DNA from: a virus
Lineage: Duplodnaviria > Heunggongvirae > Uroviricota > Caudoviricetes
Direction: 5' to 3' (one strand)
Length of the DNA stretch: 10,152 nt
IMG/VR virus record: IMGVR_UViG_2534681939_000019
Positions 1,817-7,812 of the stretch are shown here, in pieces (position 1 is the first letter of the stretch; each line of letters begins with the position of its first letter). A program made the position numbers and the translations under genes. Below the pieces are notes generated by a model. The model had not been told where the DNA came from. It made no database searches and saw only the letters and a list, made by a program, of their open reading frames with translations.

Positions 1817-1925
1817 AACACAGAACCTTTCAGGATGACCCTTGAGGATACCGGTTTGGCTGTCGGTGCCTTTCTGTGGGCTGGATTCCTGTGAGACAAG
1901 GTTCATCACTAAAAGGAAATAACCG

Positions 1926-2498
1926 ATGAATATGATGGCCGTGCCGTTTCACGGCAACTCTCTTTATGTAGTTAACCATAATGGCGAACCATACGTTCCC
2001 ATGAAACCTGTCGTTGCGGGGATGGGGCTGGCCTGGCAATCACAGTTGGCTAAGTTAAGACAGCGTTTTGCGTCAACTATAACGGAAATCGTTATGGTTG
2101 CTGAGGATGGGAAACAACGCAATATGGTGTCCATGCCACTTCGAAAACTTGCCGGCTGGCTACAAACCATTAATCCCAACAAAGTAAAACCCGAAATCCG
2201 CGATAAGGTCATCCGGTATCAGGAAGAGTGCGACGATGTTCTTTACGAGTACTGGACGAAGGGTTTTGTCGTTAATCCCCGTAAAATGAGCGTGATGGAA
2301 GAACTCAACCAGGCTTGTGCTGACATGAAACGGGATAAAAACATTGCCAGTGTGTTTGCTACCGGGCTGAATGAGTGGAAACAGGTTAAAGCCGCGCAAT
2401 GTATCAAAAAATCCGTAACGCTGGTAAATGAAGCGAATATGCTGATTGATTTTGTCCTGGCTGATACAGGCAAAGGGAAAATAACAAAGGCGGATTGA
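1926..2498 (+). CDS. Phage antirepressor-like protein (P22 Ant N-terminal-domain type)
   Basis: 190-aa ORF with SD AAGGAAAT 5 nt before the ATG; N-terminus VPFHGNSLYVVNHNGEPYVPMKPVVAGMGLAWQSQ ... PLRKLAGWLQTINPNKVKPEIRDKVIRYQEECDDVLYEYWTKG fits the antirepressor N-terminal domain pattern as recalled. Confidence 0.7.
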   Translation: MNMMAVPFHGNSLYVVNHNGEPYVPMKPVVAGMGLAWQSQLAKLRQRFASTITEIVMVAEDGKQRNMVSMPLRKLAGWLQTINPNKVKPEIRDKVIRYQEECDDVLYEYWTKGFVVNPRKMSVMEELNQACADMKRDKNIASVFATGLNEWKQVKAAQCIKKSVTLVNEANMLIDFVLADTGKGKITKAD

Positions 2499-2650: not shown

Positions 2651-3122
2651 ATGAACCGTGTTCTGTGTGTGGTGATTATTGTCATGGCGGTTGGACTGTG
2701 GTGCGCTGTGGCCTGGGCAACAAACCATTACCGTGACTACGCGCTCACCTACAAAGCGCAGCGCGATAAAAAAGCCAGAGAGACTGGAACAGGCGAATGC
2801 CACCATTACTGACATGCAGGTGCGCCAGCGTGATGTTGCTGCGCTCGATGCAAAATACTCGAGGGAATTAGCCGATGCGAGAGCTGAAAATGAAACTCTG
2901 CGTGCTGATGTTGCCGCTGGTCGTAAGCGCCTGCGGATCAACGCCACCTGCCCCGGTACCGTGCGTGAAGCCACCGGCACCTCCGGCGTGGGCAATGATG
3001 CCGCCGTCGAACTCTCTCCGGTTGCTGGACGAAACGTTCTCGGTATCAGAGACGGAATCATCAGCGACCAGGCAGCATTGAGAATGCTTCAGGAATATAT
3101 CCGCACTCAGTGTATTAACTAG
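2651..3122 (+). pseudogene. Rz: Rz i-spanin, reading frame disrupted by an apparent 1-bp insertion near 2783
   Basis: ATG 2651 gives MNRVLCVVIIVMAVGLWCAVAWATNHYRDYALTYKAQRDKKARE (transmembrane N-terminus, lambda Rz-like) then stops at 2810-2812. The +1 frame continues LEQANATITDMQVRQRDVAALDAKYSRELADARAENETLRADVAAGRKRL...EYIRTQCIN to TAG 3120-3122, matching lambda Rz. Confidence 0.8.
2875..3081 (+). CDS. Rz1: Rz1 o-spanin lipoprotein, embedded in the +1 frame of Rz
   Basis: MRELKMKLCVLMLPLVVSACGSTPPAPVPCVKPPAPPAWAMMPP: lipobox LVVSAC and proline-rich segment as in lambda Rz1; lies wholly inside Rz in the +1 frame. Confidence 0.7.
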   Translation: MRELKMKLCVLMLPLVVSACGSTPPAPVPCVKPPAPPAWAMMPPSNSLRLLDETFSVSETESSATRQH

Positions 3123-3146
3123 TATTTTTGTTATTCGGAGAATGCA

Positions 3147-3370
3147 TGAAGAAATTATTGGTAACCGTAAAGCCTTTTCAGGGAACAATTCCGTTCCGTA
3201 TTTTGCAGCGTGGTCGTGTTCTTGTTGAAGGTTCGTTCAGTGGTAAATGTACGCAATTACACTCCAGGACCTTTCAGGTGAATGCCACGAATGAAGAGCT
3301 AACCGTTGAGTGTACGATGAATGCCGCTAAATGCCGCATGGTATCCGCTGCATTACAGCCAGTGTGTTGA
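3147..3370 (+). CDS. Hypothetical small protein (74 aa)
   Basis: ATG 3147 (MKKLLVTVKPFQG...) has GGAGAA 6 nt upstream; it is the internal start of track ORF 3128..3370. No motif recognised and no signal peptide, so it is not Bor-like. Confidence 0.4.
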
Positions 3371-3726
3371 GCGACCTTATTATTCATGCGCGGTATTGTC
3401 GCCGTATTCCTGCATTAACAGAGACCGCAGCCCGACCGGGAGAATCCTCTGCGCGAGTGTGCGGGGATAATCAAAAACGATACACACCGGGGTTTACCGC
3501 GTTAACGGAGCGCGGCGTTGTCCCCTCATGGTCGCTGGTCCGGTGCGATGGTGGAAGAAGCCGGATGTTTATCACTATTAATTGATAACACAGAAATGGA
3601 TTCATTGGTTTTCAGCACGTTTTTGTATTCGTATTATTGAACATCTGTTTATTTTACTTTTAACATATTGATAATAAAAAGAGCTGTAAATCATTAGATG
3701 AGTCGATTTTGTCCGGGGAAGTTCAA

Positions 3727-3879
3727 ATGGATTTTATGCTGACGGTTTCTGGTGTGGTTATCCTGTCCATTGCTTATACTGCAGATAAATATGGCTGCCA
3801 TTTGTTATCACGTATTGGCGCTTATTGCTCGTTGATGCTGATTTCCTCGTCGCTTTTTTTGAGTAAGTTATATTAATTA
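3727..3879 (+). CDS. Candidate small hydrophobic protein (49 aa) inside an AT-rich island
   Basis: ATG 3727 with GGGGAAG 5 nt upstream; product MDFMLTVSGVVILSIAYTADKYGCHLLSRIGAYCSLMLISSSLFLSKLY has two hydrophobic stretches. Short and AT-rich, so it could be spurious. Confidence 0.25.
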
Positions 3880-4001
3880 TAACAAATAATTTTCTGTGTT
3901 TTTTCAGGCTATCCCGTCAGACGGGAAGCCTGTACTGCCGGGGGACGAATGGAAAACTGATGTGTCCGGTAAACTGTGTGTTCTTGTGAACACCATGTTA
4001 C

Positions 4002-4184
4002 TTAATTAATGTAATTCATACCCGAACGCTCTGTTGACAGCCTTCTTCTGCAGGCTTCAATAACCCACGCTGAAAAGTTACCGGAACCTTTATGTTCAAG
4101 GGCGATATTGATCTGTTCAATCATGTGATTGGGGAAACGGATATTGCGGATTGTGGTTCTGCGGGTCCGGTTTTTCGATGACAT
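4002..4184 (-). CDS. Small ribbon-helix-helix-like DNA-binding protein (YlcI/YnfO DUF3950-like)
   Basis: 60-aa minus-strand ORF MSSKNRTRRTTIRNIRFPNHMIEQINIALEHKGSGNFSAWVIEACRRRL...: basic N-terminus, a beta-strand-like RNIRF, then two helices. SD AGAGGAAAG lies just upstream of the ATG on the minus strand. Resemblance to K-12 prophage YlcI/YnfO is from memory. Confidence 0.6.
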   Translation of the reverse strand: MSSKNRTRRTTIRNIRFPNHMIEQINIALEHKGSGNFSAWVIEACRRRLSTERSGMNYIN

Positions 4185-4225: not shown

Positions 4226-4768
4226 ATGGCTGTGCTTCGTACGTTACCGGGCAGAATCAAAACTCTGAACACCCGGCGGATAAATGTCCTGAGGGGGGAA
4301 CAGCGTCGTGTCAGTGGCAGTGCCCGGGTTTCCCTCAAACGTCGTATCTGGCGGAGGGATGCCGGACACTGTTGTCTCTGTAGACGCGTGGTTGACCTTC
4401 GTGACAGTGAACTCGATCACCGCATTGCACTTCAGTTCGGTGGTGGTAATGAGGAGACGAACCTCTGGACCCTCTGTACTGAATGCCATCGCCAGAAGTC
4501 AGCGAGTGAAGCGGCGAGTGGTATGCCTGATCCGACGTTGCCTGAGCTTCCTGATGGCACGCTCAGGGCCGACGGAATCACTCGGCCTGTGACCACGACC
4601 CGGGGGGGGATCATCCGGCGAAAAAAAACGATCGCCCTGGACACCGCGCCCCCTCTCACGCAGAGAAAAAATTCCCGTTTCAGGGCAGTTAACATGTTAA
4701 CTGGCTGCCCGGGCATTTTTGCGGTTTTTATCTTTATTATTCAGTTTGTTGTGCGGAAAAAATGTTAA
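4226..4768 (+). CDS. HNH endonuclease (terminase-associated, HK97 gp74-like) with an unusually long C-terminal tail
   Basis: HNH motif HCCLCRRVVDLRDSELDHRIALQFGGGNEETNLWTLCTECHRQK; SD GAGGA 7 nt before ATG 4226; directly upstream of terS. The last 60-80 codons run through G8 and A8 homopolymers and into the palindrome array, so the true stop is uncertain. Confidence 0.75.
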   Translation: MAVLRTLPGRIKTLNTRRINVLRGEQRRVSGSARVSLKRRIWRRDAGHCCLCRRVVDLRDSELDHRIALQFGGGNEETNLWTLCTECHRQKSASEAASGMPDPTLPELPDGTLRADGITRPVTTTRGGIIRRKKTIALDTAPPLTQRKNSRFRAVNMLTGCPGIFAVFIFIIQFVVRKKC

Positions 4769-4883: not shown

Positions 4884-5447
4884 GTGCTGACAACGCAAAA
4901 ACGAAAATTTGCGCTGGCGCTCATGTCCGGGAAAAACAAAACAGCGTCAGCCATTGCCGCCGGTTATTCGGCGAAGACCGCCAGGGTTAAAGGCTCGCAG
5001 CTGGCAAAAGATCCTGAGGTGCTTGCGTTTATAGCCCGTAAACAATGCGAGACGGTGGAGGTGGATGAGGTTCCTGTTTACCGGCAGAAAAAATCAGAGC
5101 AGGAGGATAAACCCCGTCGCCGTGAGGCGGCTGCAATACCACAGCCGGACGAAAACAATCTGGAGATGCCACCGTCCGCGGTGATGTCTCCTGGTATTGA
5201 ATATATGGAGGATGGTCTTCCCGATCCGGTGAAAGCCATGGGGCGGATCCTGGTGGAAAACCTCTGCATTGATCCGAAACTGGCACTGGATGCGGCCTGG
5301 CGTCTGGCGCAGTTCACGCACCATAAAAAAGGGGATACCGGGAAAAAATCGGCAAAAGGTGATGCCGCGAAAAAAGCGGCTAACCGTTTTGCGGTGCCAC
5401 CGCCACCCCGACTGGTGGTGAATAACGATAATGAGGGCAACGGATGA
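4884..5447 (+). CDS. terS: Terminase small subunit (Terminase_2-like, N-terminal HTH)
   Basis: MLTTQKRKFALALMSGKNKTASAIAAGYSAKTARVKGSQLAKDPEVLAFI fits the TerS HTH pattern (AGYS.KTA...GS.L). GTG 4884 follows GGGAGGAGG (4873-4881); an in-frame ATG at 4833 is an alternative start without a good SD. Stop overlaps the terL start (ATGA at 5444-5447). Confidence 0.8.
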   Translation: MLTTQKRKFALALMSGKNKTASAIAAGYSAKTARVKGSQLAKDPEVLAFIARKQCETVEVDEVPVYRQKKSEQEDKPRRREAAAIPQPDENNLEMPPSAVMSPGIEYMEDGLPDPVKAMGRILVENLCIDPKLALDAAWRLAQFTHHKKGDTGKKSAKGDAAKKAANRFAVPPPPRLVVNNDNEGNG

Positions 5448-7167: not shown

Positions 7168-7746
7168 GTGACTCTTAAACGGGCCTGTTCCCTGCTGACG
7201 GTGAAATCCTTCAGCGAGGATGAACGGGTGATCACCGGGATTGCGTCAACGCCTTCTCCGGATCGGGATGGTGACATCCTGGAGCCGGAGGGGGCGGAGT
7301 TTGGCTGTGCGATCCCGTTTCTCTGGCAGCATGACTATTCCCGTCCGGTGGGCCAGTGTACGGTACGCCGGGTCAGTGAAGGTCTGGAAATCACGGCAAC
7401 ACTGGTGAAGCCCGTACCGGATATGCCGTCGCAACTGGCTGCCCGGCTGGATGAGGCCTGGGCGGCCATTAAGACCGGGCTGGTCAGGGGGCTGTCCGTG
7501 GGCTTCCGTCCCCATGAATACACCTCTCTGGACGGAGGCGGACTGCATTTTCTGCGCTGGGAACTGATGGAGGTGTCTGCCGTCACCGTGCCCGCGAATG
7601 CGGAATGCACCATCCGGACCATTAAATCTTACGACCGCCCGTTTTCTGCCGCGTCCGGCAACCGGAAACCGGTGGTGAAAATCGCATCTTCTGCCGGCGC
7701 TGCGGCACAGTCAACAACCGCTTTTCATAAGGAAAAGACAGAATGA
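7168..7746 (+). CDS. HK97-family prohead protease (peptidase S78/U35)
   Basis: GTG 7168 with AGGAGG 5 nt upstream; VITGIASTPSPDRDGDILEPEG ... FLWQHD ... GLSVGFRPHEY ... MEVSAVTVPANAECTI is the typical motif order of the HK97 protease family. Confidence 0.85.
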   Translation: MTLKRACSLLTVKSFSEDERVITGIASTPSPDRDGDILEPEGAEFGCAIPFLWQHDYSRPVGQCTVRRVSEGLEITATLVKPVPDMPSQLAARLDEAWAAIKTGLVRGLSVGFRPHEYTSLDGGGLHFLRWELMEVSAVTVPANAECTIRTIKSYDRPFSAASGNRKPVVKIASSAGAAAQSTTAFHKEKTE

Positions 7747-7812
7747 ATATTGGCGAACAGATAAAAGTTTTGAAACAAGCGTGCGGCGCTGGCAGCCTCC
7801 CTTGAGGAGGTC

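Follow-up and report, generated by a model that had tools for sequence, protein, structure and literature searches.

A P22 Ant-headed gene in the lysis cassette of a lambdoid prophage belongs to a conserved two-domain family and follows a predicted structured leader RNA

Genes labelled ‘ant’ or ‘d_ant’ are already present in the records of VT2-Sakai, 933W, BP-4795 (ORF49), YYZ-2008, Phi24B and many Shiga toxin (Stx) phages, and the copy found at positions 1926–2498 of the IMG/VR virus record IMGVR_UViG_2534681939_000019 (Caudoviricetes, 10,152 nucleotides; this whole stretch is referred to as the window) was subjected to computational analysis to characterise the protein, its genomic setting and the sequence upstream of it. 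In the VT2-Sakai record the gene is described as ‘similar to antirepressor of bacteriophage P22’, the GenBank record of P22 cross-references ant of VT2-Sa and 933W, and Ant genes were counted in 126 genomes in a survey of Stx phages. The product of d_ant was put forward as an anti-repressor in 2015 without a direct test (Nejman-Falenczyk et al.; the hypothesis is found in PMC4426718 and PMC10732415), and in the accessible text of these sources the basis is sequence similarity only. The gene has thus long been annotated, and hence the antirepressor idea is not new. The Phi24B record HM208303 adds that d_ant is ‘likely to be interrupted when compared to related gene in P22’, and a binding site for the microRNA-size RNA 24B_1 was published within d_ant.

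Other described systems bear on this gene. Knock-out of the Phi24B gene ant lowers pR' reporter activity after induction (Fogg et al. 2011), and its product resembles P22 Ant C-terminally, with 82% identity over the last 104 residues according to the authors' figure. The rha genes of P22 (orf201) and phi80 are late-operon genes, and a secondary source describes their products as detrimental to lytic growth without integration host factor (IHF). Directly upstream of P22 rha, an 89-nucleotide (nt) small RNA named P22F was reported on the + strand at 21,301–21,389, its end lying 6 nt before the rha ATG, and the available portion of that report gives it ‘no known function’ (Noncoding RNA 2026, PMC13397905).

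The open reading frame (ORF) in the window is intact and under selection; at full length it belongs to a family of cytoplasmic phage proteins with two domains and is not a fragment of P22 ant. This family stays in or beside the lysis cassettes of Q-dependent lambdoid prophages, mostly in the interval between endolysin and i-spanin, whichever lysis families are present. Upstream of the gene lies a leader that is modelled as a conserved structured RNA with the ribosome-binding site inside a helix. The attachment to the lysis cassette across differing lysis families, together with the conserved leader module, is what goes beyond the existing annotation. The best reading of the gene is a late-transcribed, translationally throttled, Rha-like late protein, which we hold to be somewhat more probable than its negation; a classical repressor-binding antirepressor role is less likely.

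The coding region was defined as follows, with lengths in amino acids (aa):

1926–2498, + strand: ant / d_ant-type gene with ATG start; 190 aa here and 189 aa in all other genomes; P22_AR_N at aa 5–113 and ORF11CD3 at aa ~122–173.

A first reading of the letters (hereafter the sequence-only reading) had placed a 190-aa ORF with a P22 Ant-type N-terminal domain at 1926–2498, between R (1121–1655) and Rz (2651–3122), and this was borne out by the ORF call and by Pfam, where P22_AR_N (PF10547) covers residues 5–113 with E = 1.5e-45 and 154.5 bits (cut-off 30.7). ORF11CD3 (PF10549) was matched at residues 122–156 with E = 1.8e-5 and 25.3 bits, barely over the curated cut-off of 25. In PHROGs the protein was assigned to phrog_524 ‘anti-repressor Ant’ (E = 1.4e-109), covering positions 7–210 of the 317-position profile. 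Residues 1–126 align to residues 10–136 of P22 Ant at 50% identity over 127 aa (E = 1e-38), and beyond residue 126 no alignment to P22 Ant was obtained. Residues 122–173 match the C-terminal end of a KilA-N + ORF11CD3 protein (BLASTP E = 8e-8), and their alignment with P22 Rha is weaker (E = 0.011). On these alignments we take the C-terminal ORF11CD3 domain to be real.

Three families had been named in the sequence-only reading as the ones to look for; P22_AR_N was found, and AntA (PF08346) and KilAC/ANT (PF03374) were not. Neither P22_AR_C (PF10548) nor Bro-N was present in Pfam at E ≤ 0.1, Phage_pRha (PF09669) was not found in the Pfam search, no NCBIfam model matched the protein, and among the solved structures of the PDB it has neither a sequence nor a profile relative. 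The step from the name of the domain to ‘antirepressor’ is not supported, as P22_AR_C, KilAC and AntA are missing and ORF11CD3 stands in their place.

In total, 2,596 homologues were retrieved. The best 120 nearly all combine PF10547 with PF10549, are mostly 187–192 aa long and come from at least 10 genera (Escherichia, Salmonella, Xenorhabdus, Photorhabdus, Serratia, Proteus, Providencia, Sodalis, Arsenophonus and Hamiltonella). The family alignment contains 36 invariant columns, and the two-domain architecture of ~188 aa is kept down to ~60% identity in many genera. The ratio of nonsynonymous to synonymous substitution rates (dN/dS), calculated in comparisons without saturated synonymous sites, was 0.05–0.23, with both halves of the protein constrained. 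These data bear on the view, expressed in the annotation note of HM208303, that the gene is an ‘interrupted’ d_ant, a decaying and functionless remnant of a P22-type ant. The phrog_524 profile (317 positions) and P22 Ant (300 aa) are indeed longer, and the window copy contains a scrambled stretch of 7 residues; however, that stretch is confined to one draft contig, the C-terminal part is a recognised domain common to Rha and KilA-N proteins, and both the conserved architecture and the dN/dS values speak against decay, which we therefore regard as hardly credible.

The quality of the window was evaluated against the closest complete genome, E. coli O157:H7 493/89, which is 98.6% identical across the whole window. 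Relative to this reference, 125 substitutions and 21 single-base insertions or deletions (indels) were counted, and the indels are clustered (556, 1538, 2398–2417, 2596, 2695–2783, 3853–4008, 4583–4597, 7144 and 7738–7772). In the window, the genes for holin, lysozyme, the 48-aa ORF, Rz, HNH and protease-capsid carry single-base indels and all are intact in the reference; every affected gene is split except HNH, the frame of which extends to 180 aa instead of 121. Within ant the reading frame is restored:

2398–2417, + strand: compensated frameshift caused by single-A insertions at 2398, 2406 and 2417, by which the conserved HVSKIR becomes QCIKKSV; probably a sequencing or assembly error.

Apart from residues 158–164, which are altered by the three A insertions, the window protein is the same as the reference protein WP_001056806.1 (189 aa), and the altered stretch includes H158 and K162, whose conservation in the family is at least 90%. 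None of the complete genomes carries the window version of ant (best match 99.7%), and public data contain the exact 190-aa protein a single time (EHU94481.1, E. coli DEC3F draft) and the 189-aa form on at least 1,000 contigs. Because the window is a short draft contig from a multi-copy prophage region, the clustered indels are most likely sequencing or assembly errors in a collapsed region of this kind, rather than pseudogenisation or decay. Among 5,426 complete E. coli genomes, ant was found in 698; the copy number per genome has a median of 4 and reaches 8.

On the + strand of the window the order of genes is S, YdfR/DUF1327, R, ant, the 48-aa ORF, Rz/Rz1, HNH endonuclease, the terminase subunits and an HK97-type protease-capsid gene, and the S-YdfR-R-ant-Rz arrangement matches 488 phage records. 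The placement inside the lysis cassette, which the sequence-only reading had described, was confirmed, and the link to lysis genes is kept across genera. The order is holin_3_1, a 133-aa ORF, ant, DUF2570 and LysC in Xenorhabdus; lysozyme, ant, DUF2570 and LysC in Serratia; and lysozyme, ant and Rz in Arsenophonus and X. stockiae. Proteus has a 139-aa ORF, ant and Rz, Providencia a weak M15-peptidase match, ant and a DUF2570/LysC-like gene, and Photorhabdus Rz followed by ant. Two Salmonella loci differ in arrangement, one (L013; L numbers are used here for the sequences compared) with a GH108 endolysin followed by ant and no spanin assigned downstream, the other (L011) with ant, holin and lysozyme, and Rz further on.

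Genes for the full two-domain protein had adjacent lysis genes at 18 of 21 loci, the three exceptions being contigs of less than 1.8 kb, and loci with the N-domain only had separate lysis-gene matches at 2 of 59, or at 4 of 59 if two matches inside ORFs of ~640 aa are counted; the lysis proteins were taken from a local library drawn from the positive loci, so the sensitivity of this comparison is biased. The contrast persists when it is restricted to Enterobacterales. Expression late and together with the lysis genes, as the sequence-only reading had proposed, is plausible: a search for promoters of the sigma-70-like type found none near ant on the + strand between 350 and 4300, and all relatives examined sit downstream of a Q antiterminator gene.

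The interval of 270 bp between R and ant is a conserved element and not an empty gap, and 170–330 nt upstream of ant can be aligned across genera despite a differing upstream gene. The following elements were identified in it:

1766–1792, + strand: degenerate counterpart of an intrinsic-terminator-like hairpin; consensus of relatives AGCCTCGC-nnnn-GCGGGGCTTTTTT, in the window GGCAccgtaatgaTGCC and TTTGTCATTT, weak; intact in L141, L172 and L038.
1795–1809, + strand: small GC hairpin GCGC-N7-GCGC, its position conserved in relatives.
1808–1937, + strand: conserved structured leader, matched by covariance model R1 at 122 bits and extending 12 nt into the coding sequence.
1826–1916, + strand: long interrupted hairpin of ~90 nt, predicted from the minimum free energy (MFE) fold and covariation counts.
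1913–1917, + strand: Shine-Dalgarno sequence AAGGA, 8 nt before the ATG at 1926, with AAGG within the basal helix.

In the long hairpin, CCTTT (1826–1830) would pair with AAAGG (1912–1916), GATGA (1834–1838) with TCATC (1903–1907), CCTTG (1840–1844) with CAAGG (1897–1901), AGGA (1845–1848) with TCCT (1887–1890) and CCGG (1851–1854) with CTGG (1881–1884). Fifteen enterobacterial leader variants were folded independently, and all 15 gave the same hairpin architecture from very different helix sequences; the mean predicted pairing probability of the Shine-Dalgarno window across these variants was 0.4–0.9 (in silico only).

Covariation was evaluated on a structure-naive MAFFT alignment of 23 distinct leaders, using a structure of 23 pairs taken from the window. 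In this alignment 80.7% of the cells were paired, compared to 71.7 ± 1.1 in shuffles (0 of 500 reached the observed value), double-sided changes were present in 77 cells compared to 32.7 ± 5.4 in shuffles, and the covariation score was 0.431 versus 0.09–0.19 for slid partners, where the sequences are related and the controls are not strict probabilities. The covariance model R1 was built from the same alignment and gave 37 copies in 94 sources. After fitting to R1, 86% of the cells were paired, compensatory change was seen in 16 of the 23 pairs and the score was 0.479 versus ≤0.154, in an alignment that is biased towards the model. Leaders that were not part of the seed also fold to this hairpin; among them, L038 keeps all 23 pairs, 9 of which are changed on both sides relative to the window. 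RNAalifold recovered 6 pairs only from the plain MAFFT alignment because bulges shift the register, and it was replaced by the hand-defined structure, the covariance model and the independent folds.

The upstream region might also act as DNA and not through RNA structure: it could hold a promoter or an operator, form a palindrome to which a protein binds, or serve as a linker for recombination by which cassettes are swapped. Near-identical leaders before different genes in one host group (the second copy in L141 has 89.5% identity to the window leader) fit module exchange by recombination, the MFE is unexceptional and the minus strand would pair in 80.9% of cells. The + strand pairs better, however, at 86.0%, and G-U pairs favour the sense strand (66, versus 29 A-C pairs). 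With compensatory changes in 16 of 23 pairs across clades, a helix that consistently reaches the Shine-Dalgarno sequence, no promoter-like site found in the gap and a homologous P22 stretch that accumulates as sense-strand RNA, we consider an action at the DNA level quite unlikely.

No Rfam 15 family was found in the window at the gathering score, nor at E ≤ 1 within 1600–2000, and none overlapped the leader in 15 related loci. The Rfam models of sar, C4, IsrK and IsrJ gave no match in the window or the related loci, and the positive control, Gifsy-1, gave isrK, C4 and isrJ. An anti-small RNA of the AgvB/AsxR type in the gap between R and ant (CACAACA motif) was considered and rejected, as AgvB and AsxR map to the moron site just downstream of pR' and Rfam finds nothing. 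In the distant homologues of Psychrobacter (L065, L070) an unrelated stretch of ~120 nt upstream also folds to hairpins at the start codon (TTCTACCTTG...CAAGGTAGAA), and R1 has no match there.

The same leader was found in front of other genes. Additional R1 matches precede a Phage_pRha + ORF11CD3 gene (L141), a KilA-N + ORF11CD3 gene (L172), Phage_pRha genes (L011, L038), a KilA-N gene immediately upstream of ant (L027) and a Bro-N gene (L040). The extra units of leader and gene are located in the late region as far as their flanks were examined, and where the upstream sequence was read (L141, L172 and L038) the terminator hairpin opens the module. In Symbiopectobacterium (L027/L074, 2958–4525) two units stand in tandem, a leader with a KilA-N gene followed by a leader with an ant gene, an arrangement which suggests that the slot can hold several cassettes. 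The isrJ terminator of Gifsy-1 (L175, 33406–33480; AAGCCUCGCCAUCGUGCGGGGUUUU) closely resembles the terminator-like hairpin of the module in L009, L029 and L141 (AGCCTCGCCATcgTGCGGGGCTTTTTT); the terminator alone is shared between isrJ and the ant/rha leader module, and the Rfam isrJ model has no match in those loci.

In P22 the element was located at 21276–21406 (R1, 69 bits, E = 1e-11), after Rz and before ORF201, which is rha and encodes Phage_pRha + ORF11CD3. The annotated start of ORF201 (L173, AF217253, 21326–21931) falls inside the leader hairpin, and the R1 model, the onset of the Rha domain (residue 48 versus 25 in relatives) and the P22F paper point to ATG 21395 as the start of rha, giving 178 aa. 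The sequence of P22F is the P22 copy of the long hairpin (window 1826–1916). P22F is independent experimental evidence for sense transcription of the homologous P22 element and for its accumulation as a discrete RNA.

Since Q lies upstream in relatives and a separate promoter for ant was not detected, the Rha-like reading that we prefer puts the gene on the Q-antiterminated late transcript. The terminator-like hairpin would stop transcription that is not modified by Q and so leave ant silent in the lysogen, and the long hairpin would occlude the ribosome-binding site and keep translation of ant low. The long hairpin may also be an RNA processing site, since its P22 counterpart accumulates as a discrete RNA of 89 nt. 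The protein would act like Rha, as a late regulatory or interference protein, and its dose would have to be limited, given that mis-regulated Rha of P22 or phi80 prevents phage growth in IHF-deficient hosts. The choice of target would lie with the swappable N-domain, and ORF11CD3 would serve all members as an effector or oligomerisation part.

A wider proposal is put forward more tentatively, and we think it possible but rather doubtful. The module of ~130 nt, of which P22F is the P22 copy, would be an undescribed class of cis-acting RNA gate or processing site in lambdoid phages of Enterobacterales. The late ‘Rha-slot’ proteins under its control would form an interchangeable set, their heads being Ant-N, Rha, KilA-N or Bro-N and their tail often ORF11CD3. 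The Rha block in IHF-deficient hosts, a phenotype known for decades, would arise when this gate fails, and in enterohaemorrhagic E. coli (EHEC), with 4–8 copies, the proteins would interfere late with co-resident or competing phages.

Several observations weigh against the Rha-like reading and its leader mechanism. The AlphaFold2 model of the protein has a mean predicted local distance difference test score (pLDDT) of 60.5, with ~65–85 in the N-domain and a long low-confidence C-terminal helix. Foldseek with this model returned no significant fold match (best E = 0.12), leaving a DNA-binding fold of the N-domain unsupported; the Mbp1 APSES domain and LAGLIDADG proteins surfaced at E = 0.4–0.8 only, which is a hint and not evidence. 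The leader hairpin is no more stable than shuffled sequence (z = 0.05), and stability was for this reason left out of the argument for the leader. The terminator-like hairpin of the window itself is degenerate. The IHF consensus WATCARNNNNTTR occurs in the window at 3661–3673 only and not in the leader, so the link to the genetics of Rha and IHF is by homology of slot, leader and C-domain only. RNA processing is speculative because the ends of P22F are unlike those of a simple RNase III product. The relatedness of the sequences behind the covariation controls and the bias of the lysis-protein library, both given above, count on the same side.

A true antirepressor, made late off the lysis transcript, would relieve repression in its own or in co-resident prophages by binding their CI-type repressors, an idea raised in the sequence-only reading and hypothesised in print for d_ant. 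Targets for cross-talk exist, since the copies in EHEC genomes (median 4, maximum 8) are spread over different lambdoid prophages. The protein shares 50% identity with the N-terminal part of a genuine antirepressor, that of P22, and control by a terminator and a hairpin occluding the Shine-Dalgarno sequence is typical of P22 ant/sar, P1 ant/c4 and Gifsy-1 anrP/IsrK. The two Ant proteins with measured antirepressor-type effects, those of P22 and Phi24B, nevertheless share their C-terminal and not their N-terminal domain, and going by sequence the domain common to them appears to be the one missing in the window protein, which is no proof that the N-domain cannot bind a repressor. In addition, Rha, KilA-N or Bro-N heads freely replace the N-domain in the same slot behind the same leader, which argues against one conserved repressor-binding surface, and late expression would leave other prophages little time to profit. 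Overall, we judge the antirepressor role improbable, although clearly less so than an action of the leader as DNA or decay of the gene.

The sole published link to an antirepressor role, the 24B_1 site within d_ant, was no better than chance in the window and was rejected: its duplex at 2050–2075 reaches −15.7 kcal/mol with 7 nt of exact complement and ranks 29th among 1,010 windows. In silico, the 24B_1 20-mer pairs better at 1311–1370, 3461–3520 and 4971–5030 of the window.

Some KilA-N-headed prophage proteins act in interference or defence against competing phages, and the window protein could likewise be a prophage-encoded factor of superinfection exclusion or abortive infection. The module is portable and moron-like, its heads are interchangeable, as expected of target-specific recognition, and the phenotype of Rha is itself a block of phage growth. 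On the other hand, the defence models of PADLOC gave no match. A defence gene would have to be on in the lysogen, but for this one a separate promoter was not detected and the module seems built against expression there. We give such a role a small chance.

The genes around ant in the window are described as follows:

507–721, + strand: class II holin S; a 1-base deletion at 556 splits the gene in the window.
1121–1655, + strand: endolysin R, a phage lysozyme; a 1-base insertion at 1538 splits the gene in the window.
2498–2643, + strand: predicted membrane ORF of 48 aa in the interval between ant and Rz; phrog_4906; a 1-base deletion near 2596 shifts its frame in the window.
2651–3122, + strand: i-spanin Rz with embedded Rz1 at ~2890–3081, split in the window by insertions at 2695, 2714–2715 and 2783.

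The 48-aa ORF (2498–2643) contains the hydrophobic segment MGWLMISDKLITLVKSLCVLVGISFLVMLVAIFF and could be lysis-related. Small ORFs of 60–88 aa follow ant in Salmonella, Arsenophonus and Photorhabdus, and none follows it in Xenorhabdus and Serratia. The YdfR/DUF1327 gene (726–1070) between holin and endolysin is a conserved gene of this prophage type, as is the YlcI/DUF3950 gene (4002–4184, − strand) ahead of the HNH-terminase block. After Rz, a 74-aa ORF (3146–3370), annotated as a hypothetical protein in the reference, matches positions 100–172 only of the 291-position phrog_2571 (E = 2.8e-28) and may be a fragment of a larger gene.

Taken by itself, ant is an ordinary gene: it has long carried this label, and most EHEC genomes have several copies. 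The label ‘antirepressor’ rests on half a protein; as the domain shared by the two functionally characterised Ant proteins is missing, models of Stx-phage induction based on d_ant lack support. The gene is not a broken P22 ant and belongs to a conserved family tied to the lysis cassette. The covarying leader, absent from Rfam and common with P22 rha, offers a testable handle on the control of dose-sensitive late genes and gives the orphan P22F a context. If ant plays a part in the timing of lysis or in cross-talk between prophages, this would matter for toxin release, since the gene probably shares its transcript with stx and the lysis genes.

Compared with the named systems, the ant/d_ant of Stx phages (WP_001056806.1, ‘phage antirepressor N-terminal domain-containing protein’) is the same gene, with 96.8% protein identity and the same position between R and Rz, and it differs from the window copy only by the three-base insertion artefact of the latter; the literature treats it as a putative or ‘interrupted’ antirepressor, which the present family analysis does not support. 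P22 Ant has a P22_AR_N domain homologous to that of the window protein, but is 300 aa long and combines it with P22_AR_C, in place of which the window protein has ORF11CD3. The contexts also differ, being mnt-arc-ant with sar in the immI region of P22 and S-YdfR-R-ant-Rz in the window, and the leader of the window gene is unrelated. Translation of both genes would be controlled at the level of RNA, in P22 by the sar antisense RNA. The Ant of Stx2 phage 1717 (gp70, 307 aa) combines P22_AR_N and P22_AR_C; this full-length P22-type Ant (L004, 2965–3888) is inserted between the tail genes L and K, in the late structural operon. Phi24B Ant (Fogg et al. 2011) bears the same name and is found in the same phages, but it is the product of a different gene, located in the nin region upstream of Q and annotated with AntA + P22_AR_C, and it has no domain in common with the window protein.

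The isrK-orf45-anrP system of Gifsy-1 and c4-ant of P1/P7 also place an antirepressor-like gene by Q and the lysis genes, with an mRNA that is translationally inactive through RNA structure, and the likeness is an analogy of logic and location. AnrP of Gifsy-1 was rejected as a homologue, with BLASTP E = 2.3 against the window protein, no R1 match in Gifsy-1 and the use of isrK + C4 by that phage. P22F was reported as a small RNA and precedes rha, and the accessible part of the report presents it without structure, conservation or a link to Ant, Rha or KilA; its window counterpart precedes an Ant-headed gene. Rha (P22 ORF201 and phi80 rha) has the late-operon slot by the lysis genes, the leader RNA and the ORF11CD3 tail in common with the window gene, and differs in its N-domain, which is Phage_pRha in Rha and P22_AR_N in the window protein; the growth block in IHF-deficient hosts is known for P22 and phi80 rha only. 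Judged by slot, leader and C-domain, the closest functional relatives of the window gene would be the Rha proteins of P22 and phi80.

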